52,040 nt of DNA, from NCBI GenBank assembly GCA_016281405.1, contig JAEEIO010000045.1, positions 1-52,040 on the forward strand, read 5' to 3'. Positions 12,070-36,988 of this stretch are shown here, piece by piece. Within the stretch, counting starts at the first letter, position 1. Each line of letters starts with the position of its first letter. Below the pieces are notes generated by a model. It saw only the letters and a list, made by a program, of their open reading frames with translations. It was not told the DNA's origin and did no database searches. The DNA comes from Clostridiales bacterium. Its GTDB lineage: Bacteria; Bacillota; Clostridia; Oscillospirales; RGIG5299. A program made the translations under genes and the position numbers.

Positions 12070-12077
12070 GACGAAAA

Positions 12078-12110
12078 AACGGCGTTTGTAAAAACGCCGT
12101 TTTATTTTTC
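12078..12110 (+). terminator. Rho-independent terminator after nagB
   Basis: aacggcgttt-gta-aaacgccgtt stem followed by a T-rich run. Confidence 0.7.
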
Positions 12111-12114
12111 GCCA

Positions 12115-13908
12115 TTGAAAAGCGATTCGATTTATGATATTATAACCGAGGAAGAGAAAACCCGAAAAGAGGAGAGCCAGACGTCATATCGTAAAAACAG
12201 ACAATATATAAGCGAACTCCCGTTGCTTTTAGCCGAATGGGATTGGAAAAAGAATACGGTTTCGCCTTATGAAATAACTGTCGGAAGCAGTGTGCGTTGC
12301 TTTTGGAAATGCTCCGTTTGCGGCCACTCCTGGTCTGCCGTTGCTAATACAAGAGGGATGAGGGGCGGCGGATGCCCCATGTGCGCCCGAAAAAAGCGCG
12401 GTCTGACAAGGATGAAAACCTTTGCGGAAAAGAACAGTTTTATTATTAACTACCCCGAGATTGCGCGCGAATGGCATCCGACGAAAAACGAAAACGTGAA
12501 AATCGAAAACGTCTCCGCGTGTTCCAATGTAAAAGCATGGTGGAAATGTTCCGTTTGCGGTAAAGAATGGCAGGCCACAGTAAACCATAGAACCGTCGGA
12601 AATACAGGCTGCCCGATTTGTTCAAAAAAGGACAGTGCGGCAAAAAAAGTGAAAACCCACGCTAAGCGAAACAACTTTGCCGATAATTATCCGCTTGTCG
12701 CCGCAGAATGGCACCCCACGAAAAACGGAGAAATGAAGCCCGAAGAATTCTCTTCCGGCAGCAACAAAAGAGTCTGGTGGCTTTGCGGGTTTTGCGGGAA
12801 CGAGTGGGAGGCAACAATAAACAAACGAACCACGGGGAGAGGTTGCCCGATATGCTCAAAAGCAAACACGTCGCTTCCCGAACAGACCGTTTTCTTCTAC
12901 GTGCAAAAGGTTTTTCCTGACGCCCTCAACCGTTTCAAAAAGGACTTTGAATTTGATATTTATATTCCGTCCGTTCAAACGGCAATCGAGTATGACGGTT
13001 CGGCCTACCATAAGACGCCGAAGGCGCTTATTAAAGATAATAACAAAGACCGGTATTGCGCGGCAAACGGCATACGGCTGATTCGCTTTCGCGCTCCGAA
13101 ACTCGCGGACACCGAACACGCCGTTCGCATAACGTGCGAGGATTACCAAATAGAAAAGGGACTAAAAGAGCTTTTCAAAATACTTGAAAAAGACTGCCCC
13201 GATATCGATATCGACCGCGACAGAATAAAAATAATCAACTGTTTCCGCAACGTTCAGAACGAAAATAGTATCGCGGCAAAGTTTCCGCTTATTGTTAAAG
13301 AATGGAATTATCAAAAAAACGGAAAAATAAATCCCGCGGCTGTCGCGGCCATGTCAAACGTGAAGTTCTGGTGGAAATGCCGCGTTTGCGGTTATGAATG
13401 GCAGGCCGCGGCAAATAAAAGATGCGGCGCGGGAAGAGGATGCCCGTTTTGCGCGGGAAAAGTTGTTGTGGCGGGGAAAAACGACTTGGAGACGCTTTAC
13501 CCCGAGATTGCGGCGGAGTGGGACTATGAGAAAAACGCACCTCTACTTCCTGCACAAGTGACTCCGCACAGCAATAAAAAAGTGTGGTGGAAATGTAAAG
13601 AGTTTGGGCATATATGGCAAACAAGTGTTAATGATAGGGTTAATGACAGCACAAAATGTCCGTTTTGCAGAAATAAAAAAGTATTAAAAGGCTTTAATGA
13701 TCTGGCAACCACCAATCCCCGCCTCGCCGAGGAGTGGAGCGAGAAAAACGAAATAAAGCCGACGGAAGTCACCGCAGGCTCCGAGAAAAAAGTTTGGTGG
13801 AAGTGCCGTGCTTGCGGGCACGAATGGCAAGCGGTTATTTACAGTCGAAAAAATAATGGTTGTCCGATTTGCGGAAAGAAAAAAATAAAAAAACCCTTGA
13901 CAAAGTAA
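12115..13908 (+). CDS. Six zinc-ribbon repeats (DUF4379-like) flanking a central Vsr/DUF559-like PD-(D/E)xK nuclease-fold core
   Basis: Six repeats of the type (E/A)EW(H/D)xxKN...(V/A)WW(K/L)CxxCGxxWxAxxxxR......CPxC, three on each side of FEFDIYIPSVQTAIEYDGSAYH...NGIRLIRFR. The start is an apparent TTG, and the true start is uncertain. The gene is visibly lower in GC than its neighbours. Confidence 0.7.
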   Translation: MKSDSIYDIITEEEKTRKEESQTSYRKNRQYISELPLLLAEWDWKKNTVSPYEITVGSSVRCFWKCSVCGHSWSAVANTRGMRGGGCPMCARKKRGLTRMKTFAEKNSFIINYPEIAREWHPTKNENVKIENVSACSNVKAWWKCSVCGKEWQATVNHRTVGNTGCPICSKKDSAAKKVKTHAKRNNFADNYPLVAAEWHPTKNGEMKPEEFSSGSNKRVWWLCGFCGNEWEATINKRTTGRGCPICSKANTSLPEQTVFFYVQKVFPDALNRFKKDFEFDIYIPSVQTAIEYDGSAYHKTPKALIKDNNKDRYCAANGIRLIRFRAPKLADTEHAVRITCEDYQIEKGLKELFKILEKDCPDIDIDRDRIKIINCFRNVQNENSIAAKFPLIVKEWNYQKNGKINPAAVAAMSNVKFWWKCRVCGYEWQAAANKRCGAGRGCPFCAGKVVVAGKNDLETLYPEIAAEWDYEKNAPLLPAQVTPHSNKKVWWKCKEFGHIWQTSVNDRVNDSTKCPFCRNKKVLKGFNDLATTNPRLAEEWSEKNEIKPTEVTAGSEKKVWWKCRACGHEWQAVIYSRKNNGCPICGKKKIKKPLTK

Positions 13909-13958
13909 AATAAATCTGATACAATTAAATTGCATACAATGAAAAGGAGGAGAAAACA

Positions 13959-14498
13959 ATGTCAATCTACGATTTCACCGTCAAAAAGAGAAGAGAAGGG
14001 GAGCTTTCGCTCTCGGATTTAAAAGGCAAGGTCCTGCTTGTCGTCAACACGGCGACCGGCTGCGGCTTCACGCCGCAATACGAGGGCCTCGAAAAGCTCT
14101 ACGCCAAATATAAGGACAAGGGCTTCGAGGTGCTCGATTTCCCCTGCAATCAGTTCGCGGGGCAGGCGCCCGGCACCGACGAGGAGATACACGAATTCTG
14201 CACCTTAAAGTATAAGACGACCTTCGACCAGCTCGCCAAGGTCGAGGTAAACGGCGAAAACGAGGAGCCGCTTTTCACCTTCCTGAAGGCCGCCATACCC
14301 GAGGACGAGATAAAGGGCGTCAAAAACAAGATGATAATGAAGTCCATAAAGGCCATAAGCACGTCCACCAAAAAAGACGGCGACATCAAATGGAACTTCA
14401 CCAAGTTCCTCATAGGCCGCGACGGCGTCCCCGTAAAGCGCTACAGCCCGACCGTCGCCCCCGCCGACATTGAAAAAGACATTGAAGAACTGATCTGA
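13959..14498 (+). CDS. Glutathione peroxidase (Cys-type)
   Basis: All three GPx signatures are present: NTATGCGFTPQY, FPCNQF and WNFTKFL. RBS AGGAGGAG. Confidence 0.9.
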   Translation: MSIYDFTVKKRREGELSLSDLKGKVLLVVNTATGCGFTPQYEGLEKLYAKYKDKGFEVLDFPCNQFAGQAPGTDEEIHEFCTLKYKTTFDQLAKVEVNGENEEPLFTFLKAAIPEDEIKGVKNKMIMKSIKAISTSTKKDGDIKWNFTKFLIGRDGVPVKRYSPTVAPADIEKDIEELI

Positions 14499-17749: not shown

Positions 17750-19096
17750 ATGGGACTTATAAAAGCAATCACCGGCGCCGTGGGCGGCGTGCTTGCCGAT
17801 CAGTGGAAGGAATTCTTCTATTGTGAAGCTCTTCCCGCAGACGTTCTCGTCACCAAGGGCGTAAAACGCACCGGAAACCGCACCTCGAACACCAAAGCGA
17901 GCGACAATATCATCAGTAACGGCTCGGGCATCGCGGTTGCCGACGGCCAGTGCATGATCATAGTCGAGCAGGGCAAAATAGTCGAGGTCTGCGCCGAACC
18001 CGGCGAATTCACCTACGACACCTCTACCGAGCCGAGCATCTTCGCCGGAAGCCTCGGCAAGTCGATAATCGAGACCTTCAAGACTATCGGCAAGCGTTTC
18101 ACCTTCGGCGGCGACACCGCGAAGGATCAGCGCGTCTATTACTTCAACACCAAGGAAATCACCGACAACAAGTTCGGCACCGCCAATCCCGTTCCCTTCA
18201 AGGTCGTCATAAACGAGGCCCTCGGCTTCAAGCTTTCCGTAGACCTCCGCATGAACGGCGTCTATTCCTATAAGATAGTCGACCCGCTCCTCTTCTACAC
18301 CAACGTCAGCGGAAACGTCGCGAGCGAATACAGAAGAAGCGAGATCGACGCCATGTTAAAGGGCGAGCTCGTCATGGCCCTTCAGCCCGCTCTTGCAACC
18401 CTTTCGGCGGCCGGCGTCTCCTACGATCAGATACCCGCCCACACCAGAGAAGTCCGCGACGCTCTTAACGTCGAGCTCAAAAACGACTGGGGCAAGCGCG
18501 GCATCGAAGTCTTCTCGATGAATATCGGCGTGCCGTCGATACCCGAGGAGCAGAGAGCCAAGATAACCGAGTGGGAAGAAACCTCCATGACCTTGAATCC
18601 CAACGTCGGCGCCGCCCGTATGGTCGGCGGACAGATCTCGGCCATGAACAAGGCCGCCGAGAACGAAGGCGGAGCTATGACCGGCTTTATGGGTATGGGT
18701 ATGGCGATGAACGCAGGCGGCAACAGCGCCGCTCAGAACCTCTACGCCATGGGCGCCACTCAGCCCGTGCAGCAGCAGGCCCCCGCCGCCCCCGCTCCCG
18801 CGGCCGCGGCAGTCGTCGGTTGGACCTGCCCCAAGTGCGGCAAAGAAGGCCAGACCGGCAAGTTCTGCGCCGACTGCGGCGCGGCCCGTCCCGAAGAGGC
18901 GTCCTACTGGACCTGCCCCAAGTGCGGAGCCAAATGCACCGGCAAGTTCTGCCCCGAGTGCGGCGAGAAGAAGCCCGCCGCGGCGCCCCTCTACAAGTGC
19001 GATAAATGCGGCTACGAACCCGAGGATCCCTACAATCCTCCCAAGTTCTGCCCTGAGTGCGGCGACCCCTTCACCGACGGCGATATAGTTAAATAA
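17750..19096 (+). CDS. SPFH/band-7 family (YdjI / virion-core-protein-like) protein with a low-complexity linker and C-terminal zinc ribbons
   Basis: N-terminus MGLIKAITGAVGGVLADQWKEFFYCEALPADVLV is typical of the COG4260 SPFH family. The C-terminus has repeated CPKCG...KFC(A/P)(D/E)CG ribbons after an A/P/Q-rich linker. Confidence 0.8.
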   Translation: MGLIKAITGAVGGVLADQWKEFFYCEALPADVLVTKGVKRTGNRTSNTKASDNIISNGSGIAVADGQCMIIVEQGKIVEVCAEPGEFTYDTSTEPSIFAGSLGKSIIETFKTIGKRFTFGGDTAKDQRVYYFNTKEITDNKFGTANPVPFKVVINEALGFKLSVDLRMNGVYSYKIVDPLLFYTNVSGNVASEYRRSEIDAMLKGELVMALQPALATLSAAGVSYDQIPAHTREVRDALNVELKNDWGKRGIEVFSMNIGVPSIPEEQRAKITEWEETSMTLNPNVGAARMVGGQISAMNKAAENEGGAMTGFMGMGMAMNAGGNSAAQNLYAMGATQPVQQQAPAAPAPAAAAVVGWTCPKCGKEGQTGKFCADCGAARPEEASYWTCPKCGAKCTGKFCPECGEKKPAAAPLYKCDKCGYEPEDPYNPPKFCPECGDPFTDGDIVK

Positions 19097-19111: not shown

Positions 19112-19142
19112 GCCGCCCGTCTTTTGACGGGCGGCTTTTTTT
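19112..19142. terminator. Bidirectional rho-independent terminator
   Basis: gccgcccgtc-ttttg-acgggcggc stem followed by T7. It lies between the convergent SPFH gene and the small minus-strand peptide gene. Confidence 0.8.
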
Positions 19143-19152: not shown

Positions 19153-19302
19153 TTAGAAATTGCTGTTGGCGCAATTGCAGCCGCTTCCGAGCGAGTTGCA
19201 GCCGCAGCCCTTATCGCCGTTAAAGAAGAGAAGAACGACTATGGCGGCGATGAAGATCCAGAAGAGAGTGCCGTTGGTGAGGCAGTTGTTATCGGTGCAC
19301 AT
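19153..19302 (-). CDS. 49-aa Cys/Gly/Asn-rich single-pass membrane peptide, possibly similar to YjcZ-like tiny sporulation proteins
   Basis: It is below the track's size cut-off and was translated by hand: MCTDNNCLTNGTLFWIFIAAIVVLLFFNGDKGCGCNSLGSGCNCANSNF. It has a perfect GGAGGT RBS 7 nt upstream of the ATG and a terminator downstream. Confidence 0.6.
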   Translation of the reverse strand: MCTDNNCLTNGTLFWIFIAAIVVLLFFNGDKGCGCNSLGSGCNCANSNF

Positions 19303-19356: not shown

Positions 19357-19429
19357 TTAATCGTTGCAGTTCTTTGCAGTTTGCGGGCGGTAAAATCATG
19401 GTGCAAACGAAAAGGGAAGGAGGATAAAA

Positions 19430-19777
19430 ATGAAAGGTCTTACCAAAAAGGTCGTCGTGAACAGACTGTTACGCTACGTCGCCTCCGTTTCGGGAAACGA
19501 GGACGAGATACCCACGGCGGCGGGTATGGCGAACTACCTCGGCATGACGAAGGAGGAGCTTTTCGCCCTCGAACGCTCGGAGGACGCCGACGTCAGAAAG
19601 GCTTACTGCAAGGCGATGAACGACCTCGAGCATTTTCTGCTGTCGGGCGCGGCTTTCAAGCGGATAAACTCGTCGCTCGCGGCCCTTTGCCTTAAAAATC
19701 TCTTCGGCTACGGCAAGGAGTCCGACGGCGACGACGACCTCGATCTCACTCTCACCGTGGCGGGTGAGAAAAAGTGA
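19430..19777 (+). CDS. Terminase small subunit-like DNA-packaging protein
   Basis: 115 aa with an HTH-like segment (TAAGMANYLGMTKEELFAL) and an acidic C-terminus. It sits directly upstream of TerL and overlaps it. RBS GGAAGGAGG. Confidence 0.65.
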   Translation: MKGLTKKVVVNRLLRYVASVSGNEDEIPTAAGMANYLGMTKEELFALERSEDADVRKAYCKAMNDLEHFLLSGAAFKRINSSLAALCLKNLFGYGKESDGDDDLDLTLTVAGEKK

Positions 19778-21111
19778 AGCGGGAGATAGAGGTCACCGAA
19801 AAACAGGCCGCCTTCATAAAGACCGACGCCGACGAGGTCTTTTTCGGCGGCGCGGCGGGCGGCGGCAAGTCCTGCGCGCAGGTCATAGACGCCCTCTTTT
19901 TCGCGTATTCGCACGCGGGCTCAAGGCAGCTGGTTTTGCGCCGCACCTTTCCCGAGCTTGAGCGGAGCATCGTGCCGTTATGCCGCAGGTTTTATCCGAA
20001 AGAGGCGGGCAAATACATCTCGTCAAAGCACGTCTGGCGTTTCAAAAACGGCTCATTGATAGAGCTCGGCTACCTCGAGGCCGAGGAGGACGTCACGAGG
20101 TATCAGTCGGCCGAATACGACGTCATCCGTTTCGACGAGCTGACGCACTTCACAGAAAGCCAGTATCTCTATATGCTCTCGCGCCTTCGCGGCGCAAACG
20201 GTTTTCCGAAGCAGATGAAGTCGACGGGCAACCCCGGCGGCGTCGGCCACGCCTTCGTCAAAAAGCGGTTTATAGACGATCCCGACGCCGTGGTAAACGG
20301 CAGGCGTTTTCAGTTCATCCCGTCCTTCGTGCGGGATAACCGCTTTCTCACCGAGGCCGACCCCGGCTACGAAAAGCGGCTTTCGGAGCTTCCCGAAAAG
20401 GAGCGCCGCCGCCTTCTCGAAGGCGACTGGAACTTTTTCGACGGCGCCTATTTCTCGGAGTTTTCGCCCGCCGTCCATATCGTAAAGCCTTTCGATCTGA
20501 GCGGCTATACCCGTTTCCGCTCGCTCGACTACGGTCTCGACATGACCGCCTGTCTTTGGTGGGCGGTCGACGCCAAGGGCGACATGTATATTTACCGCGA
20601 GCTTTACGAAAGCGGCCTGACGCTTTCGCAGGCGGCCGAAAGAATAACGGAGCGCACGCCGCCGTTTGAGGATATAGTCTACACCGTCGCCTCGCCCGAC
20701 CTTTGGAACAGAAGGCAGGAAAGCGGCTTTTCGGGCGCCGAGATAATGTATTCGGCGGGTCTTACAGGTCTCATTCCCGCCGACAGCGGCCGCGTGAGAG
20801 GACTTAGGAGGCTACGCGAGCTTTTGCGGTGCGACGGCGGCACCTCGCCGAAGCTTCGCTTTTTCGAGGGATGCTGCCCCAACCTCGTGAGGTGCCTCCC
20901 GCTTCTGCGCCACTCCGACCGCGACCCCGAGGACGTCGCGGGAGAGCCGCACGAGATAACCCACGCGCCCGAATCCCTTCGCTACGGCGCGATGTCGCGC
21001 CCGTCCGTCCCCGAAAAGGGGACGCCCGCTCCCTCGGAGCGAAGCTTCGGCGACCCGTTCGCGAAAGACGCGGACGACGGCGCGCCGAGCTACCAATATC
21101 TTTACTGTTAG
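19774..21111 (+). CDS. Terminase large subunit
   Basis: Walker A GGAAGGGKS, Walker B/coupling YDVIRFDELTHF, and a C-terminal RNase-H-like nuclease segment (SLDYGLDMTACLWWAVDAKGDMYIYRE). Confidence 0.9.
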   Translation: MKREIEVTEKQAAFIKTDADEVFFGGAAGGGKSCAQVIDALFFAYSHAGSRQLVLRRTFPELERSIVPLCRRFYPKEAGKYISSKHVWRFKNGSLIELGYLEAEEDVTRYQSAEYDVIRFDELTHFTESQYLYMLSRLRGANGFPKQMKSTGNPGGVGHAFVKKRFIDDPDAVVNGRRFQFIPSFVRDNRFLTEADPGYEKRLSELPEKERRRLLEGDWNFFDGAYFSEFSPAVHIVKPFDLSGYTRFRSLDYGLDMTACLWWAVDAKGDMYIYRELYESGLTLSQAAERITERTPPFEDIVYTVASPDLWNRRQESGFSGAEIMYSAGLTGLIPADSGRVRGLRRLRELLRCDGGTSPKLRFFEGCCPNLVRCLPLLRHSDRDPEDVAGEPHEITHAPESLRYGAMSRPSVPEKGTPAPSERSFGDPFAKDADDGAPSYQYLYC

Positions 21112-21121
21112 GAGAGAAAAA

Positions 21122-21304
21122 ATGGAACTTTTTTGCATAGGCCTTTCGGCGGGCGTCGCCCTGTCGGCTGTATTCGCCATTTTAAGCGGCTGCCTTTGGC
21201 GTCGCGCCCGGAACAAAAAGGCCGCGAAGGACGCCGACGCATACTATGCCGCCGACGAAGAGATCGAAGCCATAATGAACTATAACGGAGAGGAAACGAA
21301 ATGA
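21122..21304 (+). CDS. Small single-pass membrane protein (60 aa) between TerL and portal
   Basis: One hydrophobic helix (LFCIGLSAGVALSAVFAILSGCLW) followed by a charged tail. It overlaps the portal start by 4 nt. Coding status is plausible but unproven. Confidence 0.45.
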   Translation: MELFCIGLSAGVALSAVFAILSGCLWRRARNKKAAKDADAYYAADEEIEAIMNYNGEETK

Positions 21305-22809
21305 GAAAAATAAAAGACGAAGCCTTCACCCGCGACTGGGGACTTTACGTGAAAGGCGCCGACTGGCTGTCGACGACGGGCTACAGGACGTCCGCCCGTA
21401 AAAACGAGCGTTTTTACAGAGGCGATCAGTGGGCGGGCGTCAAGGCGGGCAATCTCCCGACCCCCGTCTTCAACATTTTCAAGCGCATTACCGACTACGT
21501 CGTCTCCTACGTCGCATCGTCGCCCGTAAAAATCAGCTTCACCGCCGACGACAGGGAAGCGGGCGAGCTCTTGGGTCTCGAGTGCGAAGCCGCGTGGGAA
21601 AAGGACAAGATGGATAAAAAAATAAGAAAAGCTCTTCTTGACGCCGCCATCACGGGCGATATGTGCGCCCACGTCTACTGGGACGGCAAAGAGGGACGTC
21701 CGGGCGGCGCCTTCGGCAATTTCAGGACGGAGATACTTGACGCCGAAAACGTCTTTTTCGGCGACGTGACGACGCCCGAGGTCGAGCGCCAGCCCTATAT
21801 CCTGATAGCGGGCCGCGCCTTTACCTCCGAACTCATCGGCGAGGCGAAGGCGGCGGGCGTCCCCAAAAAAGAGGCCGAAAAGATAGTCCCCGACTCCGAT
21901 ACCTATTCGGTCGAGACCTCCGACGGCACGCCCCGCACAACCTACGTCGTCGTCTACCGCAAGGGTAAGGACGGCTTTATTCATTACAGCAAATCGACCC
22001 GCGAGGCGGTCATAAGAGAGGACGTAAACACGGGCCTTCGCCGCTATCCCGTGGCGTTTGCCAACTGGACGGAGAAGAAGGGGAGCTTCCACGGCGAAAG
22101 CTTCTGCGGCGGCATCGTCCCCAATCAGATATTCATAAACAAAATGTTCGCCATGTCGATGAAGAGCCTCATGGACACCGCCTTCCCCAAGGCCGTCTAC
22201 GACAAGACCAGGGTTTCGGGCTGGACCAACGCCGTCGGCACCGCCATCGGTGTCAACGGCGACGTCTCGGGCGTGGCGAAATACCTCGAGGGCAAGGGCA
22301 TAGACCCCGACGCCATGACCGTCGCCGACAGGACGATAAAATACACCGAGGAGTGCCTCGGCGCGACCGACGTCTTACTCGGACAGAGCATCCGTCCCGA
22401 CAACGCCGCCGCCATAGCGGCCCTCGGCCAGAACGCCGCGATCCCGATGGAGCTTATAAGGCAAAGCCTTTACGATTTCATCGAGGACGTCGCGCTTATC
22501 TGGCTCGACTTCTTGAAGACCAAGTTCACGGCCGAAAAGACGATAACCGTCGAAAAGGACGGCAAGCTCGAAACGCTCCGCTATCTGCCCGAGATAATAA
22601 GAAGGGCGGAGGCGAGAGTAAAGATAGACGTCGGCCCGTCGGCCTACATCTCCGAGCTTTCGTCCGTCGGCGTGCTCGGAAACCTATACTCTTCCGGCGC
22701 CATCAACGCCGTTCAGTATATAGAGCGTTTACCGAAGGGCTACGTCCCCGCGGCAAACGAGCTTATCGAAGAGCTTTCCTCCCACCCCGAGGAAAAAAGC
22801 GATATGTGA
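21301..22809 (+). CDS. Phage portal protein
   Basis: 502 aa, positioned after TerL. The N-terminal ERFYRGDQW motif is typical of SPP1/other portal families. Confidence 0.8.
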   Translation: MRKIKDEAFTRDWGLYVKGADWLSTTGYRTSARKNERFYRGDQWAGVKAGNLPTPVFNIFKRITDYVVSYVASSPVKISFTADDREAGELLGLECEAAWEKDKMDKKIRKALLDAAITGDMCAHVYWDGKEGRPGGAFGNFRTEILDAENVFFGDVTTPEVERQPYILIAGRAFTSELIGEAKAAGVPKKEAEKIVPDSDTYSVETSDGTPRTTYVVVYRKGKDGFIHYSKSTREAVIREDVNTGLRRYPVAFANWTEKKGSFHGESFCGGIVPNQIFINKMFAMSMKSLMDTAFPKAVYDKTRVSGWTNAVGTAIGVNGDVSGVAKYLEGKGIDPDAMTVADRTIKYTEECLGATDVLLGQSIRPDNAAAIAALGQNAAIPMELIRQSLYDFIEDVALIWLDFLKTKFTAEKTITVEKDGKLETLRYLPEIIRRAEARVKIDVGPSAYISELSSVGVLGNLYSSGAINAVQYIERLPKGYVPAANELIEELSSHPEEKSDM

Positions 22810-22823
22810 AAGGAGCGACATAA

Positions 22824-23438
22824 ATGGATGAGAAGATACCCGAAGCTGAGCCCTTCCGCCTCAAAGTGAAATACAACCACGAGGAGATGTATCTCCCCGA
22901 GGACGAGGCGGCGGCCCTCGCGCAAAAGGGCATGAACTACGACAAGCTTCAGAAAAGCTACGAGGAGTTGAAAAACGACAGAAGCGCCGACCTTTTGGAC
23001 GAGCTTACGAAAGAATACGGCTTTGAAAACAGAGCCGAGTTTCTTGAGACGCTTAAGAAAGGGACGTCCGACGACTCCGACGGCGAGCTCAAAGCCTTTC
23101 TTCGGGAAAACCCCGACCTCGACCCCCGCTCCGTCCCCGACGAGGTGATAACCGATTACCTCGGCGGCAAAAGCATATCCGAAAGCTATCTCCGCCACCG
23201 TCTGACCAAAGAAAAGGAGAGTCTGCAGACGGAGATAGAAAGACTCCGCTCTCTTCTCGAAATAAAGGAAGAGAACGCGAGAAACGCCGAAACGGCAAAC
23301 GGGTCTTTGGCCTCCGCGGCGCCCGCGGCGGGAGAGTATTACAGCTCCGACGAGCTTGACGCTCTCTCCGACAGCGAGCTTGAGCATAACCTCGAACGCG
23401 CCGTCAGGTCGATGAGCAGACTTTCCGGAAAACTATAA
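22824..23438 (+). CDS. Capsid scaffolding protein
   Basis: 204 aa, highly charged and helical (E/K/L/D-rich). It lies between the portal and major capsid genes. Confidence 0.65.
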   Translation: MDEKIPEAEPFRLKVKYNHEEMYLPEDEAAALAQKGMNYDKLQKSYEELKNDRSADLLDELTKEYGFENRAEFLETLKKGTSDDSDGELKAFLRENPDLDPRSVPDEVITDYLGGKSISESYLRHRLTKEKESLQTEIERLRSLLEIKEENARNAETANGSLASAAPAAGEYYSSDELDALSDSELEHNLERAVRSMSRLSGKL

Positions 23439-23456
23439 TCAAAGGAGAAAAACAAA

Positions 23457-24284
23457 ATGGCATACACAACTTTCAAACCCAAGATATGGGCCAAGGCGAT
23501 CGAAAGGGAGAGAGACACCCTCTCCGTCGGCGCCGCTCTCTGCAACAGGAGCTATGAGAAGGACGTCGCCAACATGGGCAACTCCATCCAGATAAACTGG
23601 ACCAGGCGTCCCACCGTCAGGAGCTACACCGTCGGCACCGACATCACCGCTCCCGAGGTCCTCGAGGGAATCGGTTCGGCCGTCCTCGAACTCAATCAGC
23701 TCAAATACGTCAACTTTATGGTCGACGACGTCGACGAGCTTCAGTCGGCTCCCGACATAATGGAGAGCTGCATGCACGAGGCCTCCGCGGCCATAGCCGC
23801 CGACGCCGACAAATACGTCTACGGCCTCTACGCCGACGCGGGCTCCAGCATCACCAACTTTGGGGTAAACAACCTCAACATCACCGACGTGATCTCGCAG
23901 GCCGCGCAGACGCTCTACGAGCACGACGTCCCGCAGAACGAGGAAATTTTCCTCGAGGTCTCGCCCGAGATCTATCAGATCATGTGGCAGGCCAAGATAC
24001 TCCGCGAAACCCCCAACGGCGACGCCTTCGGAAGCGGCTTCGTGGGCATGTACGACAACTTTAAGGTCTACATGAGCAACTGCCTCACAAAGGATGCCGC
24101 CGGCGCAACCTACTGCTTCGCCAGAACGAGAAAGGCCATAGCCTTCGTCGGTCAGATGAAGAAGATGGAAGCCTATCGCCCCGAGGGCCTCTTCGCCGAC
24201 GCGGTCAAGGGACTCCACGTCTACGGCGCCAAGGTCGTCCGCCCGGACGAGCTTGTCGTTCTCAAGCTAAAGAAGGCGTCCTAA
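23457..24284 (+). CDS. Major capsid protein (HK97-fold type, small)
   Basis: 275 aa with a strong RBS (AAAGGAG) and a conserved position after the scaffold. The N-terminus MAYTTFKPKIWAKAIERE... resembles podophage/P22-like coat families. A strong stem-loop follows. Confidence 0.75.
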   Translation: MAYTTFKPKIWAKAIERERDTLSVGAALCNRSYEKDVANMGNSIQINWTRRPTVRSYTVGTDITAPEVLEGIGSAVLELNQLKYVNFMVDDVDELQSAPDIMESCMHEASAAIAADADKYVYGLYADAGSSITNFGVNNLNITDVISQAAQTLYEHDVPQNEEIFLEVSPEIYQIMWQAKILRETPNGDAFGSGFVGMYDNFKVYMSNCLTKDAAGATYCFARTRKAIAFVGQMKKMEAYRPEGLFADAVKGLHVYGAKVVRPDELVVLKLKKAS

Positions 24285-24296
24285 CGACGTTAAAAC

Positions 24297-24326
24297 GCCG
24301 CCGTCCTCACTTTTGAGGACGGCGGC
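24297..24326 (+). terminator. 13-bp GC-rich stem-loop just after the capsid gene; a partial terminator or RNA-stabilising element
   Basis: gccgccgtcctca-cttt-tgaggacggcggc with no T-run afterwards. Confidence 0.5.
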
Positions 24327-24352
24327 CAACCCGACAAAAAGAGGTGTAAAAA

Positions 24353-24955
24353 ATGTCAACTACCGTAAACGACGTCTTCCTTCGCGCAATGGCTTTGTGC
24401 GACTGCCTTGACGAAAACGGACAGGTCATAAACGCCGACCACACGGCGATATTTGCCGCCAGGGCGCCGATGCTCTGCGACGCCGCCCAGCGCGGACTTT
24501 TATATTACGCCGCCTACTATAAGACGACTACCTTCGTCTTCACCGCCGAGGGGGCGGGCACCCTCCCCATACCCGACGACTACGTCGCCACGGTGCGCCT
24601 CCTTTGCGACGGCGTCGACGCGACGGGCTTCGGAAGTCCCGTGAGGATCGTCGGCCGCAACTTCGTCAAGGACCGCGGCTACGCGGGCACGGTCACCTTT
24701 CATTATCAGGCTTTTCCCGCCGAGGTGACCGCCCTGTCGAGCCTTTTTTCATATCCCGACGGCGTGATACTCGCCACCCTTCCTTACTATCTCGCCTCGG
24801 TCTTTCTCGAGGACGAAGACCCCTCGCTTTCGAAATATTACGCCGACGCCTACGAAAAGGCGCGCCTCGCGATAAAGACGGCCTCCTTCCAGTCGGAGTT
24901 TTACGAGATAGGCGACGCGGTCGGAACGGAGTGTGGAAGCTGTGGCGCGAACTGA
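24353..24955 (+). CDS. Phage structural protein, possibly a head-to-tail adaptor (in the position of T7 gp11)
   Basis: 200 aa, directly after the MCP. The N-terminal VNDVFLRAMAL...AAQRGLLYY loosely recalls the N-terminus of podovirus adaptor / tail tubular protein A, from memory only. Confidence 0.4.
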   Translation: MSTTVNDVFLRAMALCDCLDENGQVINADHTAIFAARAPMLCDAAQRGLLYYAAYYKTTTFVFTAEGAGTLPIPDDYVATVRLLCDGVDATGFGSPVRIVGRNFVKDRGYAGTVTFHYQAFPAEVTALSSLFSYPDGVILATLPYYLASVFLEDEDPSLSKYYADAYEKARLAIKTASFQSEFYEIGDAVGTECGSCGAN

Positions 24956-26624
24956 TACCGCGGTCGAGATAGACCGCTTTTTAGGCATAAACGACGACGC
25001 CGCAAACTCGGGCAGACAGGGCGAGGCGGCCGCCATGAGCAACTTTTTCATAACACGCGAGGGCAAGCTTCGGAAACGAAACGGCATAAACCGTATTTCG
25101 CGTAACGGCGTGACGGGAAAAGTGCTCGACGTCGTGGAGTTTGCAACGACCACACTCGCGACCTATTCCTTTTTCGTCCTCACCGAGACGGCGCTCTGGG
25201 GTTATAACCTTACGACCCGTTCCTTCGCCGCGGTTTACAACCGTCCCGTGGCGGGGCCGGGCGCCGTCTTCGAAAAAGACGACCGCCTTTACCTTATAGG
25301 CGCGGGCGACTTCGTCCGCTTCGACAGAAACCTCGGCTGCGAGTCCGTCGAGCCCTATATCCCGACGGTAAACATCGGAAAAAACTCTTCGGGCACGGTA
25401 TTCACGCCCTACGAAAAGCCGAACAGGCTGACGTCAACCGTCCGCGAGGAGTTCACGACCGACGACGACGCGACCGTCTACAAAATGAAGTATAAAAACA
25501 TATCCGACGTGTCGGTGACGGGCATGAGTTTATTACCCTCCTACACCGTCAACTCGGAAAACGGATATATCACCTTCGCCTACACTCCCGCCCCGGGCGG
25601 CAGGATAACCGTTACCTACACGACCGCCGATCTCGCGGGACGCGATACCGCGATCAAAAACGCGGCGGGCGCCGTCTTTTTCGGCGGCACGGGCGACGGC
25701 GACCTCTTCGTCTGGAACGGGACCGACAACCTCCGCTATTACACAGAGGGCGGCGACGTCTCCTATTTCCCCGAGGACAACTGCGACACCGTCGGCAACG
25801 GTAAAATCGAGGACATGGTGAGATATTACGGCAAAATGCTCGTCTTCACGACCGACGGCATCTTCTCGAGCGTTTTCGAGGCGTCCCCGGAGGGCGATAT
25901 AAGCTATCCGACGACCCTCATAAACTCAGACTGCCGCTACCTCTCGTCGAAGGTCGTCACGGCGGACAACCACCCCGTGTTTATCAGTATGTCGAAGCTG
26001 AAGCGGGTCGTCTCGACATCGGTCCTGGGCGAGAAAAACGTCGAGACCGTGAGCGGCAGGATCGAAAGGACTTTGATCTCGCTCGGCGCGTCGGACGTCT
26101 TTTCGGTCGAGTCGCGCGGCGAGGTATGGATAACGGCGACGGGCTCCGTCATCGTCTGGAACACGGAGCAAAACGTCTTTTACCGCCTCGACGGCTTCAA
26201 CGCCGCCTACGTTTTCGACCTCGCCGCGGGCGTCCGCTTCATCGACTCGGACGGAAAGCTCTGCGTCTTCACCTACGGATACTCCGACATAGACGGCGAA
26301 GGGAACGAGACTCCCGTCTCGGCCTACTGCTACCTCGCGGGACTCGATTTCGGTCTGCCGTTTTCGGTAAAACGCCTAAACGACGTCTATATCGAAACGG
26401 GCAAGGAGGAGACTGAGGGCGGCGAAATAGCCGTCGTGACGGGCGGCGCGGGCGCGGCCGCGACGGTGAGCATAACCGCGGGCGGAATCTGCCGCAAAAA
26501 GCTTTCGGGCGAGCGCTTCGTTTCGCTCGACCTCATGATAAGGTCGGAAGGCGAAGGCGAGAGTCTGACCGTCAGAAAGACGGCGGTGGGCGCGACCCGC
26601 CTCGGCGGCGTCAAGCGCGGTTAA
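24933..26624 (+). CDS. Phage structural protein, beta-rich, possibly a nozzle / tail tubular protein B analogue
   Basis: A ~560-aa ORF with recurring strand-turn motifs (LYLIGAGDF, LFVWNGTDN, MLVFTTDGIF, VWITATGSVIVWN, KLCVFTYG). The start is uncertain: either GTG at 24933, which overlaps the previous gene, or ATG at 25035. Confidence 0.4.
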   Translation: MEAVARTDTAVEIDRFLGINDDAANSGRQGEAAAMSNFFITREGKLRKRNGINRISRNGVTGKVLDVVEFATTTLATYSFFVLTETALWGYNLTTRSFAAVYNRPVAGPGAVFEKDDRLYLIGAGDFVRFDRNLGCESVEPYIPTVNIGKNSSGTVFTPYEKPNRLTSTVREEFTTDDDATVYKMKYKNISDVSVTGMSLLPSYTVNSENGYITFAYTPAPGGRITVTYTTADLAGRDTAIKNAAGAVFFGGTGDGDLFVWNGTDNLRYYTEGGDVSYFPEDNCDTVGNGKIEDMVRYYGKMLVFTTDGIFSSVFEASPEGDISYPTTLINSDCRYLSSKVVTADNHPVFISMSKLKRVVSTSVLGEKNVETVSGRIERTLISLGASDVFSVESRGEVWITATGSVIVWNTEQNVFYRLDGFNAAYVFDLAAGVRFIDSDGKLCVFTYGYSDIDGEGNETPVSAYCYLAGLDFGLPFSVKRLNDVYIETGKEETEGGEIAVVTGGAGAAATVSITAGGICRKKLSGERFVSLDLMIRSEGEGESLTVRKTAVGATRLGGVKRG

Positions 26625-26655
26625 AATGCCGTAAAGACGGCTGAAAGGAGTAAAA

Positions 26656-27432
26656 ATGGCAACACTTGATTCCATAATAAAGGAGCTTAACGGGCTCATC
26701 CCGAAGAGCGCCGACAGCGCCGCGAAAAACGGCGAATACGTGACTAAAAACGTCGCCGATCTCAACACGGCGTTGAAGAAGCTCCGCAATTCCTACAAGA
26801 TAAAGAAAAAGCGGATAGCCGCCGAGTCGGAGGCGGCGAGGGAGGCCGCCTACCGCGAGAAAGCGGCGAAATTCCGCGATAACGAGCAAAAGAAAAGGGG
26901 AGTTGAAAACGAGTCGCGCGTCCGCGCCCGGAACAAGGAGCTCATAAACTTCTATAAGGGCATAACGGGCGCCGAGTCGGAGGGCGACAAAGAGGACGTC
27001 CTCGAAAAAGCGCTCGCCGAAAAAGGCGTCCTCGACCGCGAGCACCGCGACACGGTATACGACCTCGAGCTGAGGGAGGCGGCGGCCGAGGCCAAGAGGG
27101 AAGCAGAGAAAAAGCTTCTCGACGAGGAACGGAAGTCGGCGGAGCAAAATCTCACCGAGCAAACCAGAAACAAACTCGAGTCGCTCGCGAGAGAGCTCCG
27201 CGAGGAGCAGAGGGTAAGCGACCTCAAAGACCGCGCCGACGGAGAGGGCGGCCTTTCGGACGACGAGCTTTTCGATATATGCAACTACATCCTGACCTCG
27301 TCCTATTACAAGGGCTACCTCTATCGCTCGATGGTAAATCAGCGCTATAAGGAGCTCAAGGAGTCGGGCAACCTCACCGAGAGCGACCTCGCGAGGATCA
27401 GAAAACTCCTCAAGATCAAGGAGGGCTCCTGA
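26656..27432 (+). CDS. Highly charged coiled-coil protein (phage internal, ejection or assembly protein?)
   Basis: 258 aa, E/K/R/A-rich with a heptad-like character. RBS AAAGGAG. Its stop overlaps the holin start (TGATG). Confidence 0.5.
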   Translation: MATLDSIIKELNGLIPKSADSAAKNGEYVTKNVADLNTALKKLRNSYKIKKKRIAAESEAAREAAYREKAAKFRDNEQKKRGVENESRVRARNKELINFYKGITGAESEGDKEDVLEKALAEKGVLDREHRDTVYDLELREAAAEAKREAEKKLLDEERKSAEQNLTEQTRNKLESLARELREEQRVSDLKDRADGEGGLSDDELFDICNYILTSSYYKGYLYRSMVNQRYKELKESGNLTESDLARIRKLLKIKEGS

Positions 27433-27836
27433 TGCTCGGTAAAATGAGCGCCGTCTTCAAGACGGCCTTCGCGGCGGTCGCGACCGCGGCAAATTATCTG
27501 CTCGGCGGCTTCGACGTCTCGCTCATCGCGCTTTTCGTCTTCATGGCGCTCGACTACGCGACGGGCGTTATGTCCGCCGCCCACCGCGGCGAACTGTCGA
27601 GCAAGGCGGGATTTTCGGGGATACTGCGAAAAATCACCGTCGTCGCCTGCGTAATAGTCGCCGTCATGCTCGACCGACTGCTCGGCACCGAGCACGTCTT
27701 CAAAATGATGTTTTGCTATTTTATGATAGCGAACGAAGGACTTTCGGTGCTTGAAAACGCGGGCGAGATGGGCGTGCCGCTCCCCAAAAAGCTTATTGAC
27801 GCCTTAAAGCAACTTCGCGGCGAAAACGACGAATAA
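27432..27836 (+). CDS. Phage holin, Phage_holin_4_1 / TcdE-like family
   Basis: 134 aa with three TM segments. Family-typical sequence: FVFMALDYATGVMSA...GFSGILRKI...FMIANEGLSVLENAGEMGVPLP. Confidence 0.85.
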   Translation: MLGKMSAVFKTAFAAVATAANYLLGGFDVSLIALFVFMALDYATGVMSAAHRGELSSKAGFSGILRKITVVACVIVAVMLDRLLGTEHVFKMMFCYFMIANEGLSVLENAGEMGVPLPKKLIDALKQLRGENDE

Positions 27837-27842
27837 AAACTA

Positions 27843-27872
27843 AAAACACCTTCGGAAACGAAGGTGTTTTTT
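27843..27872. terminator. Bidirectional rho-independent terminator
   Basis: aaaacaccttcg-gaaa-cgaaggtgtttt stem with flanking A/T runs, between the holin and the convergent antiporter gene. Confidence 0.8.
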
Positions 27873-31480: not shown

Positions 31481-33778
31481 ATGGTAAAACGTGCAATTTC
31501 AGTTGCTGTTTGTTTAATGCTTCTTGCGGCCGCCGTGCCGTTTTCCGCGGTGTCCGCGGAAACGATTCCCGAGACGCCAAAGGCGTTAGCGGCGGAAGAA
31601 CTCCCCGACGCGATGATCGGCAAAATCTCCGAGAAAACGCTTGTCGCGAGAGTGAACGATTTTGAAGACGACCCCTATTCACTCGTCTTCGCAAATGACG
31701 ACGGCACCTATTCTCTCTTTTATTTCAGCGAGCCCGTGAAATACACGGCCGCCGACGGAACGGTCAAAGACAAAAGCACCGCCATTTCGGAACAAAACGG
31801 AGCTTTCCGCTCGGGCGATAACGACTTTTCGGCCGTTTTACCATACGGCGCGGCAGAGGGCGTCACGTTCTCCTACGGCGAATATGCCGTTACCTTCAAG
31901 GCAAACGGCGCGGCCGAAACTTCGCACGCCGTCAAAACGGGCCGCGACTGCGTTATCTATGCAAATATCTTTAAAAACGTTTCTCTCCGTTACACCATGC
32001 TCCTTAACGGCCTGAAGGAAGATATTATTTTGACTTCGCCCGATTGTTCCGAAAGCGTTTCTTTCACGGTTTACACAAACGGACTTTCGCTTTCCGAATA
32101 CGAGGACGGCTATTATTTCGCCTCGGGCGACGAAAAGCTTTTCAAGCTCGGCGAGCTTACGGTCGAGGACAGCTCGGGTATCTTCGACGAAAAGGAATAC
32201 GCACACGAAATGACGGTCGAGACGGTCGAAGACGGCGAAGAATACAAGGTCACGTTAACGGTCGACCGCGCTTATCTCGACGACCCCGCGAGAGTTTATC
32301 CCGTTTACGTCGACCCGACCATTACGCTTAATACCAAGACTCAAATCGAGGACACCACTCTGTTTTCAGGTCAGCCGACCAGCAATTACGGCGGATTTAA
32401 GAATATACGCACGGGGTATTACAACACGACTTATAAACAGAGTTATACCCTGATGAGATTTCCAGGGCTAACGTCGACTTCGTTTAATTTTTGTTATGCC
32501 TCCGAAATAACAAGCGCGGATTTATATCTTTATTCACAGGAAAACCGTTCAACAAGCACTTGGATACAGGCAAACTTTTATTCGGGAACAGACTGGGACG
32601 AGGATTATATAACATATAATACCGCGGTTTATCCTTTTTATTCCTTAGGCATGATGGGGTTGACGGCAGTTCCGTCTAATGCAACCGCAGGGTATATTTC
32701 CGTTGATATTACTTATGCTCTTCAAACATGGAAAGGAGGAACATATTCAAACAGTCCCTTTAATAAAGGCATATGCTTAACAGGGCCAATGTCATCCGGC
32801 AGTTGTCTTAATATAAAATCTACCGAAGCGCCATCAAACAAACCGTATTTAACGGTCGTTATTACGCCGACGCTATCGGAAAGCAGTGTTACAATTGAGT
32901 ATACTACTTCAAAACAGTTGTCATATACGATAGGCGGTAGTGTTCCCTGCGCGTCCGCATGGCTCTCAAGCAATAATTCTGTTGCAACTGTTTCTAACAG
33001 CGGCCTCGTGACGGCGGCAGGGGTTGGCAGTTGTCAAATATATGTATATGGTATTCCAAATAATGCTTTGATTGTTGCGGTTTGCGATGTTAGTGTGGAA
33101 TATATCATTTTTGAAACTCCGATTATTAATATGAATAAGGAAGATCTACAATTTGGGCAAAAAACTAAAAACACTATTCAAAGCATTAATTCCTTAATCA
33201 GTGACTCGTATTTTACAGATTCTGTTACTTCATTAAGACAAAAAATGATTAATACTTGCGAATTTGTAGGAAACACTCCTGCTCCTAATTACGCAATTGA
33301 TATGATTGACTTTTTTATTAACGGTGAAAACAGAAATATTGTGGATTACAGCAATAACGATTTAATAAATGACGTTGAAACCCATAGTTCAACAACAGCT
33401 TTTATAAATGATATAAATACGCAGATAAAAAATCAGCTGTTAAGCGGCAAAACAATGGTCGAGCTCTATGGATTTATTTCCGTCAATAAGCCAGTTTATT
33501 CATTAAATCATCCTTTGGCTTTTTGTATTCATGGCACACAATATGCGAGAGTCTCTATTACTTCGTACTCTGTTACAGGAACAAATTATTCTGCTTCATT
33601 ACATATAGTATTAAAAGATGTATTCGGTTTAGCAACTGATGATATAACACGACCGACAGGATGGCTTGACGGTTTTTTTAGCTGGTACGTATTACAACAC
33701 TATGACGGATATAATGGAGCGCATAAGCCGTTTATTACTGTAATTGAGTTTGATACTATTGTTTCGGGAACGCTTTAG
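31481..33778 (+). CDS. Secreted multidomain protein: signal peptide, DNRLRE-like carbohydrate-binding-type domain, Big_2-like Ig domain, and an unknown C-terminal domain
   Basis: Signal peptide MVKRAISVAVCLMLLAAAVPFSAVSAE. DNRLRE-like segment (VYVDPTI...EDTTLFSGQPTSNYGG...YTLMRFPGL...ITSADLYLY). Big_2-like segment (SNNSVATVSNSGLVTAAGVGSCQIYV). There is a sharp drop in GC from ~32.35 kb onward. Confidence 0.7.
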   Translation: MVKRAISVAVCLMLLAAAVPFSAVSAETIPETPKALAAEELPDAMIGKISEKTLVARVNDFEDDPYSLVFANDDGTYSLFYFSEPVKYTAADGTVKDKSTAISEQNGAFRSGDNDFSAVLPYGAAEGVTFSYGEYAVTFKANGAAETSHAVKTGRDCVIYANIFKNVSLRYTMLLNGLKEDIILTSPDCSESVSFTVYTNGLSLSEYEDGYYFASGDEKLFKLGELTVEDSSGIFDEKEYAHEMTVETVEDGEEYKVTLTVDRAYLDDPARVYPVYVDPTITLNTKTQIEDTTLFSGQPTSNYGGFKNIRTGYYNTTYKQSYTLMRFPGLTSTSFNFCYASEITSADLYLYSQENRSTSTWIQANFYSGTDWDEDYITYNTAVYPFYSLGMMGLTAVPSNATAGYISVDITYALQTWKGGTYSNSPFNKGICLTGPMSSGSCLNIKSTEAPSNKPYLTVVITPTLSESSVTIEYTTSKQLSYTIGGSVPCASAWLSSNNSVATVSNSGLVTAAGVGSCQIYVYGIPNNALIVAVCDVSVEYIIFETPIINMNKEDLQFGQKTKNTIQSINSLISDSYFTDSVTSLRQKMINTCEFVGNTPAPNYAIDMIDFFINGENRNIVDYSNNDLINDVETHSSTTAFINDINTQIKNQLLSGKTMVELYGFISVNKPVYSLNHPLAFCIHGTQYARVSITSYSVTGTNYSASLHIVLKDVFGLATDDITRPTGWLDGFFSWYVLQHYDGYNGAHKPFITVIEFDTIVSGTL

Positions 33779-33802
33779 TTTTAATTACGGAGGGGTATTA
33801 AT

Positions 33803-35675: not shown

Positions 35676-35808
35676 AAAAAAGCTCCGTCCGAAAGGACGG
35701 AGCAAATTATCTCATCTCCGGCTTTCGCCTCAGGATTTGGCACCTTACTTTTTTGCAGGTTGCCGGGCTTCACAGGGCCTGTCCCTCTGCCGCTCTTGAT
35801 AAGAAAAT
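35676..35808 (-). promoter_or_regulatory. SAM-I (S-box) riboswitch with terminator expression platform in the metK leader
   Basis: The minus-strand RNA reads ...uucuuaucaagagcggcagagggacaggcccugugaagcccggcaaccugc...ggugccaaauccugaggcg...ggagaugag, matching the S-box core. It is followed by cuccgucc-uuuc-ggacggag and U6. The promoter is TTGACA (35847-35852), 17 nt, TATAAT (35824-29) on the minus strand. Confidence 0.9.
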
Positions 35809-36978: not shown

Positions 36979-36988
36979 GCGATTTTAA

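Follow-up and report, generated by a model that had tools for sequence, protein, structure and literature searches.

Gene transfer agent (GTA)-like packaging of host DNA, in pieces of 4.6–8.9 kb, was reported by Borodovich et al. (Nat Commun, January 2026) to be common in gut Ruminococcaceae, Oscillospiraceae, and Christensenellaceae (PMC12946183). A packaging gene cluster was identified in Faecalibacterium only, and none for the other taxa (PMC12946183). This cluster, FpGTA I, is an operon of ten open reading frames (ORFs) and 10.5 kb, encoding TerS, TerL, portal, a Prp-like protein, a major capsid protein (MCP), a small protein, an adaptor, a nozzle, an ORF undetected in the particle proteome, and an abundant protein annotated as ‘TolA’; together with a distant 5.5 kb operon for fibers, holin, and endolysin, it gives rise to 40 nm, tail-less-looking particles that contain approximately 8.5–9 kb of host DNA (PMC12946183). 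A preprint of July 2026 adds candidate clusters in Coprocola and Butyricicoccaceae. Here, we describe a ten-gene, 8.4 kb phage-derived operon in contig JAEEIO010000045.1 (assembly GCA_016281405.1) of a Clostridiales bacterium of the GTDB lineage RGIG5299; positions 1–52,040 of this contig, the whole stretch of 52,040 nt that was analyzed, are called the window. The operon probably descends from a P22/T7-style podovirus that became domesticated and was passed on vertically; it would have been cut down to a single late operon and would serve as a GTA-like (viriform) particle factory. We regard the evidence for domestication, which comes from gene content and from comparison with related genomes, as strong. 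The first-pass annotation of this DNA had assumed a novel kind of element; this assumption no longer holds, because FpGTA, which has the same layout, established the kind in 2026 (PMC12946183).

The operon comprises ten ORFs, all on the plus strand, from 19430 to 27836, in the order TerS, TerL, a 60-aa transmembrane protein, portal, scaffold, MCP, adaptor, nozzle, a charged 258-aa protein, and holin. Neighboring genes are spaced by −23 to +68 nt, with overlaps at four junctions. The left border of the element is the intrinsic terminator of the upstream SPFH gene (19112–19135, plus strand), which has a 10-bp stem, nine of it GC, followed by a T-run. The right border is a bidirectional hairpin terminator (27842–27871; 13-bp stem with T-runs on both sides) common to the operon and the convergent antiporter gene. 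The guanine–cytosine (GC) content of the operon, 0.55–0.60, is that of its flanks. The remaining large ORFs of the window are host metabolic or housekeeping genes; among them are genes for glycoside hydrolases, sugar-acid catabolism, thioredoxin reductase, glutathione peroxidase, the SPFH protein, an Na+/H+ antiporter, a PII-like protein, typA, metK with an S-adenosylmethionine (SAM) riboswitch, and luxS. These observations bear out the first-pass description of ten co-directional, tightly packed, and intact frames with overlapping junctions and host-like base composition, set between strong terminators and housekeeping genes; coordinates, profile families, and junction spacings all agree.

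No tRNA gene and no integrase, replication, fiber/receptor-binding, or endolysin gene was found within the 52 kb window. A search of the same window for att-like or other direct repeats spanning the boundaries also found none, in agreement with the earlier annotation. The hallmarks of a functional or recently inactivated prophage, namely an integrase with att sites, an adjacent lysogeny module, replication genes, and a full tail and lysis cassette, are likewise missing from the window. The earlier statement that switch, mobility, and tail-fiber genes are all lacking is right for the integrase, replication, fiber, and endolysin genes, but a phage-type regulator pair is present 8 kb downstream of the operon. 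The claim of “no adjacent regulatory switch” is thus correct for “adjacent” only, since an ArpU/RinA-like gene and an XRE gene lie elsewhere in the window.

The first two genes encode the packaging proteins. TerS (115 aa; 19430–19777, plus strand like all ten genes) matches PF16677 GP3_package, the family of P22 gp3, at 1.4e-7, above the Pfam cutoff, and its stop codon overlaps the TerL start by 4 nt. TerL (445 aa; 19774–21111) matches phrog_979 (3e-51), PF04466 Terminase_3, and PF03237 Terminase_6N. Its Walker A motif (G25–S33), Walker B motif (D121–E122), and nuclease residues D252, D309, and D387 are unchanged across nine homologues; the ATPase and nuclease motifs are therefore as intact as had been claimed. 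Between TerL and the portal, the ORF calls place a single-pass membrane protein of 60 aa (21122–21304), and other strains and species have an ORF of 55–60 aa in the corresponding place. The portal (502 aa; 21301–22809) matches PF16510 P22_portal (4e-13) and phrog_156 (1.2e-35). The next protein (204 aa; 22824–23438; phrog_14606, 1e-9) is acidic, with 37% charged residues and a net charge of −18, and is scaffold-like, judged from this composition and from its position in the gap between the portal and MCP. The MCP (275 aa; 23457–24284) has the HK97 fold and is P22/Bxb1-gp6-like: it matches phrog_267 (5e-45), PF25209, and the mycobacteriophage-type “Major capsid protein gp6” of PDB entry 8e16 (3.4e-44). 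A search of NCBIfam gave zero matches at E ≤ 0.01, so the MCP does not belong to the N4-gp56 family.

The tail end of the operon was less evident from sequence. The 563-aa protein (24933–26624), whose real start may be a few codons downstream, is, as modeled, a podovirus tail nozzle of the P22 gp10/T7 gp12 type. A model from a 3-sequence alignment was unusable (predicted local distance difference test, pLDDT, 35); a 61-sequence alignment was used instead and gave an AlphaFold 2 model with a pLDDT of 90 and a predicted template modeling (TM) score of 0.87. In a Foldseek search of the PDB with this model, the best 26 matches were all podovirus nozzle/hub chains (E = 3e-20 to 1e-11; TM-score up to 0.67), including those of Pa223, Carin-1, cyanophage A4, VP1, SU10, T7 gp12, P22 gp10 (8eap, rank 12), and Sf6 gp8. 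Among the predicted viral structures of BFVD, the model matched “Stabilization protein / P22 Gp10”. By sequence, its relatives in cultured phages are weak; they are the “virion structural protein” Page_15 of podophage Page and homologues, from Bacillus megaterium podophages. Word-indexed protein searches gave two close relatives, and an exhaustive HMMER profile search gave 542 representatives of the family. In a sequence search of the PDB, the narrow nozzle profile found no match, and the broader family profile found a weak match to 26fb_K, “Structural protein” (E = 1e-4). The first-pass annotation, which had suggested structure searches, counted this protein among three unknown structural proteins; the search run on it recovered the nozzle fold, while the 258-aa protein of that trio still has no family match.

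Since the 563-aa neighbor is identified as the nozzle, the 200-aa protein (24353–24955) between it and the MCP stands in the adaptor position (T7 gp11/P22 gp4). This agrees with a weak match to PF24175 SU10_adaptor (1.9e-4, under the Pfam cutoff), and the protein is a probable portal–tail adaptor; a sequence search of the PDB found no match. The 258-aa protein (26656–27432) has 41% charged residues and no family match in the Pfam, PHROG, or NCBIfam profiles. It is kept in all orthologous loci at 36–39% identity, and its ratio of nonsynonymous to synonymous substitution rates (dN/dS) within the species is 0.09. It occupies the site of the coiled-coil needle of P22 and of the abundant charged protein of FpGTA. 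From its position and composition, it is probably a coiled-coil virion protein, and by analogy it could serve as a needle/plug or as an internal protein. The last gene encodes a TcdE/UviB-type holin (134 aa; 27432–27836; PF05105, 8.6e-40; TIGR01593, 1.9e-27).

The late operon of P22 has the order 3-2-1-8-5-4-10-26, and the order in T7 is 8-9-10-11-12. By analogy of protein types, the order of the operon is the same. The first-pass annotation had already proposed that the genes mirror the T7 order, and the gp12/gp10-type nozzle fold of the 563-aa protein supports this proposal.

Five other contigs of the same species (L087–L089, L093, and L094), from different metagenomes, carry the identical block with the same host neighbors. 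The left flank, with the GH613 gene, the SPFH gene, and a 49-aa gene on the minus strand, is seen in L093 and L094; the right flank, with the antiporter, PII, and typA genes, is seen in L087–L089 and L093. Over 17.2 kb, the window aligns colinearly with L093, with 96.8% nucleotide identity and five gaps. A cross-species scan of one genome per GTDB species yielded five further loci (L002–L006). The whole block is present in the same order in four species (L002–L005); the 6.5 kb contig L006 breaks off at the beginning of the nozzle gene and agrees in order from TerS up to that point. The antiporter–PII–typA neighbors are retained in L002, L003, and L135–L137, the last three contigs belonging to the same 90%-identity typA cluster as L003; in L005, typA and metK lie on the other side of the block. 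We also considered whether the block is the edge of a larger prophage that is complete in relatives. The sampled loci speak against this: the five same-species contigs have it between the same host genes as the window, the four further species have it complete and in the same order, and no integrase, replication genes, or further tail genes were found in the flanks of L002–L005, L093, and L135–L137.

Several features of these loci require comment. An apparent disruption of TerL in L006 proved to be an ORF-calling artifact, as one single-frame high-scoring segment pair spans residues 4–410. Two beta-helix/pectate-lyase-like genes upstream of the block in L002–L004 match “tail spike” PHROGs; the tailspike reading was rejected because both have lipoprotein signal peptides, which mark them as host enzymes, and neither is similar to the tailspike of phage Page. 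The operon of L005 abuts sigK, for the sporulation sigma factor, and a gene for an SpoVD-like penicillin-binding protein (5131–5820 region); the adjoining sigma factor was rejected as a regulator of the element, being the host SigK. In L005, an inserted 126-aa gene with a phage tail-collar domain (13269–13649) separates the nozzle gene from that of the charged protein, and judging from this domain it may encode a small fiber or receptor-binding protein. A more distant stand-alone head module without an integrase is present in an Oscillospiraceae metagenome-assembled genome (MAG; L090, positions 4297–11230 of a 117 kb contig, JGI 3300029305). Its order is a 142-aa ORF, TerL, a 582-aa nozzle-like protein ahead of the portal, portal, a 184-aa ORF, MCP, and a 128-aa ORF, and its MCP is 42% identical to that of the window. 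It sits among genes for a GFO oxidoreductase, AP endonuclease, HPr kinase, SpoVG, and MurC; the pattern of a stand-alone head module among host genes therefore recurs.

The divergence of the block tracks that of the host, as judged from the rank order of identities. Between L002 and L003, L005, and the window, typA is 95, 90, and 87% identical and TerL 82, 79, and 74%. All ten ORFs are open in the window, L002, L004, L005, L087–L089, L093, and L135–L137. When the window was compared with L087 and L088, dN/dS was 0.01–0.35 for all ten genes, with dS of 0.05–0.18 in the module against 0.11–0.17 in the flanking antiporter, PII, and typA genes. Between species, dS is saturated, and dN/dS is ≤0.3 where measurable. 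Neutral evolution of the ORFs, which would have spoken for a relic, was thereby examined and is contradicted by these values. The fixed locus, purifying selection, and open frames agree with the earlier view that the block has resided in the genome for long under selection and is not a decaying prophage.

The rates differ along the operon. The adaptor, nozzle, and 258-aa proteins are approximately 50% identical between L002 and L003, where typA is 95% and the MCP 89% identical; head genes turn over much more slowly. This fast turnover of the tail end could be due to diversifying selection or allele replacement. The MCP gene shows a pattern of its own within the species (window 23500–24100): protein identity is 91%, against 96–100% for the other module proteins present in full, and nucleotide identity falls to 89–94%, against 97–99% elsewhere, with dS raised to 0.18 and dN/dS of 0.27. 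This divergence patch looks like the product of recombination rather than of positive selection.

A conserved promoter precedes the operon. When the upstream ~150 nt of terS from five species were aligned, a single conserved island emerged, TGCAGT-N3-TTGCAG-N11-TAnAAT. In the window, this late-promoter motif reads TGCAGT-N3-TTGCAG-N11-TAAAAT (19365–19396, plus strand), with two TTGCAG repeats 10 bp apart and a −10 box, and lies 34 nt upstream of terS. It occurs exactly once, upstream of TerS, in each orthologous locus of six species (window, L002–L006, L093, and L094), where zero matches were expected in shuffled sequence. A second copy with one mismatch, TGCAGTTTATTGCAG-N11-TATTAT, is found at 36913–36944 on the minus strand, just past the terminator of a glycoside hydrolase family 20 (GH20) gene (36948–36979); for this copy, too, shuffled sequence gave an expectation of zero. 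It points antisense through an XRE gene to an activator gene, and is identical in L129–L134.

These two genes lie between metK and the GH20 gene, 8 kb downstream of the operon, with five host genes and a low-GC insertion of two ORFs in between. The 149-aa protein (35849–36298, minus strand) is an ArpU/RinA-like (Ltr-type) late activator: its C-terminal domain matches phrog_36 (4.8e-13) and phrog_248, “transcriptional activator” (6.6e-12), and the protein matches TIGR01637 ArpU (4.9e-7) and TIGR01636 RinA (1.6e-3), both under the curated cutoffs, and more weakly sigma-70 region 4. The divergent 116-aa gene product (36506–36856, plus strand) is a regulator of the XRE/cI type with a helix-turn-helix domain (PF01381 HTH_3, 2.8e-12) and matches to phage repressor PHROGs; its sequence does not vary (100% identity) among 13 contigs. 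Six same-species contigs retain both the gene pair and the motif. A metK promoter with perfect consensus (TTGACA-17-TATAAT) overlaps the 3′ end of the activator gene.

Ltr proteins (RinA, ArpU, and LtrA–C) bind short direct repeats just ahead of the late promoter and thereby switch on the terS-to-lysis operon of Gram-positive phages; cI-type repressors control them in turn (PMC3753634; PMC3152322). The activator of the window has the corresponding profile matches (TIGR01637 below cutoff), and the repeats stand upstream of terS in six species and are duplicated beside the activator locus. On the simplest reading, the pair would be a trans-encoded switch of the operon, and a remnant of the regulators of the ancestral phage, and the second copy of the motif could give feedback. 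No homologue of the pair was found in the examined parts of the loci of other species, and a tblastn search of 50,697 phage genomes with the activator gave no match. Scans for the exact motif gave 31 matches in the whole JGI metagenome collection, all in unrelated sequences, and two matches in IMG/VR. One of these two, an exact copy, lies just upstream of TerS/TerL in an unrelated long-tailed contig with a 1266-aa ORF of tape-measure size (L096, IMGVR_UViG_3300020046_003733, 14406–14437, minus strand); this could be chance or a shared Ltr-type late promoter.

From these genes, we infer a scheme in which the activator would act at the motif, particles would form and take up DNA, and the particles would be delivered to recipient cells. 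The XRE/cI-type repressor and the ArpU/RinA-type activator, encoded between metK and the GH20 gene, would form the switch. The activator would bind the TTGCAG-N4-TTGCAG repeats that overlap the −35 region at 19365–19396 and turn on the ten-gene operon. The second site, running antisense through the repressor gene toward the activator gene, would make positive feedback possible. Portal, scaffold, and capsid protein would assemble into a small procapsid, which TerS and TerL would load with DNA by headful packaging. Genes for integration, excision, and replication are lacking from the element, which would leave the host chromosome as the DNA available for packaging. The adaptor and nozzle, with the 258-aa protein perhaps as a plug or internal protein, would close the portal and form a short, fiber-less tail. 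The holin, acting with an unlinked endolysin or a host autolysin, would release the particles from a lysing subpopulation.

Some of our results weigh against this interpretation. A search of L003-type species for the activator/XRE pair found none within 10 kb of typA, so the regulatory link rests on the duplication of the motif in one species, and the NCBIfam scores of the activator fall under the curated cutoffs. The fast divergence of the adaptor, nozzle, and 258-aa protein between species could mean relaxed constraint or allele replacement and not function. In L003 (sheep-colon MAG JAFVQJ010000011), the nozzle gene carries a frameshift at approximately 12020–12110, which reflects either a pseudogene peculiar to this strain or an error in the assembly; because the close relatives L135–L137 carry an intact gene, it is not general. 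The 52 kb window yielded neither a receptor-binding protein nor an endolysin, and delivery and lysis are steps that we infer. Finally, the host is known only from MAGs, and the particle is predicted from genes.

The closest competitor keeps the domestication and changes its purpose: the operon would make a PBSX-like defective particle, which takes up DNA without delivering it, or a killer particle, or would act as a device for programmed lysis or DNA release. Purifying selection signals a function, not which one, and the authors who described FpGTA left the PBSX-like option open (PMC12946183). Two further points suit such a particle, namely the lack of a fiber or receptor-binding gene in or near the operon and the membership of the holin in the TcdE/UviB toxin-secretion family. 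However, TerS and TerL are intact, with invariant ATPase and nuclease residues, which points to selection on DNA packaging as such. For killing, a stub tail that lacks spikes would be poorly suited, and the tail-collar gene inside the L005 operon suggests that some lineages have kept receptor binding. We consider a function other than gene transfer unlikely, and continue to favor a GTA-like particle factory.

We find it still harder to accept that the operon is a clean but functionless cryptic prophage, whose deletion has merely not yet happened; this is improbable. Such a remnant would account for a structural set that is incomplete by phage standards, for the L003 frameshift, and for the rapid divergence of the tail genes. 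It would not account for ten ORFs that stay intact in the window and in ten further loci, for dN/dS as low as that given above within and between species, or for a promoter motif kept across six species, and neutral sequence would not keep its frames open at saturated dS. Open frames, purifying selection, and a conserved promoter thus disfavor an inert remnant. A capsid-forming satellite of the phage-inducible chromosomal island type (cf-PICI), or another mobile island that uses helper-phage parts, is the least probable origin: the small size, the own TerS, TerL, portal, and capsid genes, the phage-type activator and repressor pair in the genome, and a 2026 preprint that likens similar clusters to capsid-forming satellites would suit it, but neither an integrase, excisionase, or primase/replicase gene nor att repeats turned up in the 52 kb window, the block is fixed at the same chromosomal site in every sampled strain and in several species with host-like divergence, and it encodes its own adaptor and nozzle, not a connector for borrowed long tails. 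Of the three hypotheses raised in the first-pass annotation, locus, selection, nozzle, and gene content thus favor the domesticated, GTA-like particle, and disfavor the satellite and the clean remnant.

With the GTA-like particle factory as the preferred reading, a more far-reaching version can be put forward tentatively, as a possibility that we hold to be rather less than even. The element would be a second, independent domestication of a podovirus as a GTA, shared by several species of an uncultured clade of gut and rumen Clostridia, with an operon whose 8.4 kb is close to an FpGTA-type capsid load. A captured Ltr/cI switch would have moved 8 kb away and formed a positive-feedback circuit, antisense to the repressor, via the duplicated site. 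If this version is true, gut Oscillospiraceae and other Clostridia in which GTA-like packaging is seen without an identified cluster would, in part, owe it to a cluster of this type.

Other parts of the window also differ among strains. At 31481–34384, a 765-aa protein (DNRLRE/CBM96 and Big_2 domains, C-terminal DUF3289/YPO3983-family domain) precedes a 193-aa ORF without matches, with GC down to 0.34. This segment splits typA and metK, which are adjacent in the relatives L005 and L135, and in strain L087 the ORFs after typA differ in length (318 and 278 aa); it looks like a horizontally acquired insertion of the toxin/immunity type. Another segment of ~6.7 kb (~7290–13910) is not present in the same-species contigs L093 and L094, where a 557-aa ORF directly precedes the glutathione peroxidase gene. 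It holds genes for a beta-lactamase-fold protein, a GFO/IDH/MocA oxidoreductase, an amidohydrolase, an NagB-like protein, and a protein of 597 aa that carries six DUF4379 treble-clef zinc fingers, and its GC is 0.45–0.47 over the last gene.

Directly upstream of the operon and divergent from it, a small Cys/Gly-rich membrane ORF of 49 aa (19153–19302, minus strand) has its own promoter and no family match. It is conserved in L002–L004 at 77–81% identity, where the two lipoprotein beta-helix genes separate it from terS. The SPFH/Band-7 protein beyond it (17750–19096) has a C-terminal array of five zinc-ribbon repeats (CPKCG/FCxxCG), which shows in the DNA as a family of 24-nt direct repeats at 18820–19065. 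Rfam searches found the SAM riboswitch in the metK leader (35709–35805, minus strand) and a Gut-1 small RNA (51819–51894, minus strand; 54.9 bits) near the end of the window.

This study also allows a comparison with the known types of phage-derived elements. By the criteria proposed for GTAs and viriforms (PMC9662315), we find caudovirus-derived structural and packaging genes in a cellular genome, no integration, excision, or replication genes in the window or in the flanks of relatives, vertical inheritance (same locus and a divergence ranked like that of typA), and purifying selection (on each of the ten genes). Further criteria for GTAs are the packaging of random host DNA in pieces too small for the whole GTA genome and delivery to recipients (PMC9662315). 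The cf-PICIs resemble the element in being small chromosomal islands with their own terminase, portal, and capsid. They have, however, an integrase, regulatory and replication modules, att sites, and the tails of helper phages, whereas the element has its own nozzle and none of these. The Ltr-regulated phages share with it the ArpU/RinA and sigma-70-region-4-type matches, the short direct repeats at the terS promoter, and a neighboring cI/XRE-type gene; in these phages, ltr lies immediately upstream of terS, whereas the activator here is 8 kb away on the other strand.

Among complete phages, P22, T7, SU10, and Page are similar in gene order, nozzle fold, the Pfam matches (P22 gp3, P22 portal, and SU10 adaptor), and the nozzle homologue Page_15. 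In contrast, these phages have genomes of 30–45 kb with tailspikes or fibers, ejection proteins, endolysin, replication, and regulatory genes, which are absent here. Four podovirus contigs of IMG/VR (L008, L018, L019, and L037) have the order TerL–portal–scaffold–MCP, followed further on by adaptor and nozzle, and MCPs 37–42% identical to that of the window. They differ by two extra genes between the MCP and adaptor, further tail genes, and early genes.

The GTA of Alphaproteobacteria, RcGTA, is likewise a phage-derived head–tail cluster that is inherited vertically, is under purifying selection, and lacks integration and replication genes, with regulators and lysis genes at other sites of the genome. 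In contrast to the element, RcGTA is siphovirus-like, with a protease-processed HK97-type head and a long tail, and extends over ~15 kb at multiple loci. It belongs to a different phylum and is under the control of the host CtrA/GafA and not of a phage Ltr-type activator.

FpGTA is the nearest match. Both are stand-alone, podovirus-like operons of ten ORFs with adaptor and nozzle and without integrase or replication genes, in gut Clostridia; FpGTA is near-ubiquitous in Faecalibacterium. The FpGTA nozzle was matched to the same P22 gp10 structure (8eap) that is also a strong match of the nozzle here, and its terminal charged protein (‘TolA’) has a counterpart in the charged 258-aa protein. However, the hosts differ (Faecalibacterium and a ‘Clostridia bacterium’ clade), as do the lengths of the operons (10.5 and 8.4 kb). 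The FpGTA MCP was named ‘N4-gp56 family’ by NCBI, whereas the MCP here is PF25209/Bxb1-gp6-like without an NCBIfam match. A Prp-like gene lies between portal and MCP in FpGTA, whereas the element has an acidic scaffold-like protein without a Prp match. Holin, endolysin, and fibers are encoded in a second operon 125 kb away in FpGTA, whereas the holin ends the main operon here. Electron microscopy, proteomics, and packaged DNA stand behind FpGTA, whereas the element is known from its genes. By family names and gene descriptions, the element appears to be a lineage separate from FpGTA.

The comparison indicates where this locus adds to what is known. New here are the promoter motif and the candidate trans-encoded Ltr/XRE pair. 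The activator and repressor provide a testable model of regulation, and the operon together with its TTGCAG-N4-TTGCAG late promoter is a sequence signature by which such elements can be located in MAGs. Prophage-prediction tools will mislabel such loci as defective prophages or satellites. A minimal head–nozzle–holin design is kept under selection in another, uncultured clade of Clostridia, with a capsid family that appears to differ from that of FpGTA, which raises the question of whether podovirus-type GTAs arose once or repeatedly.

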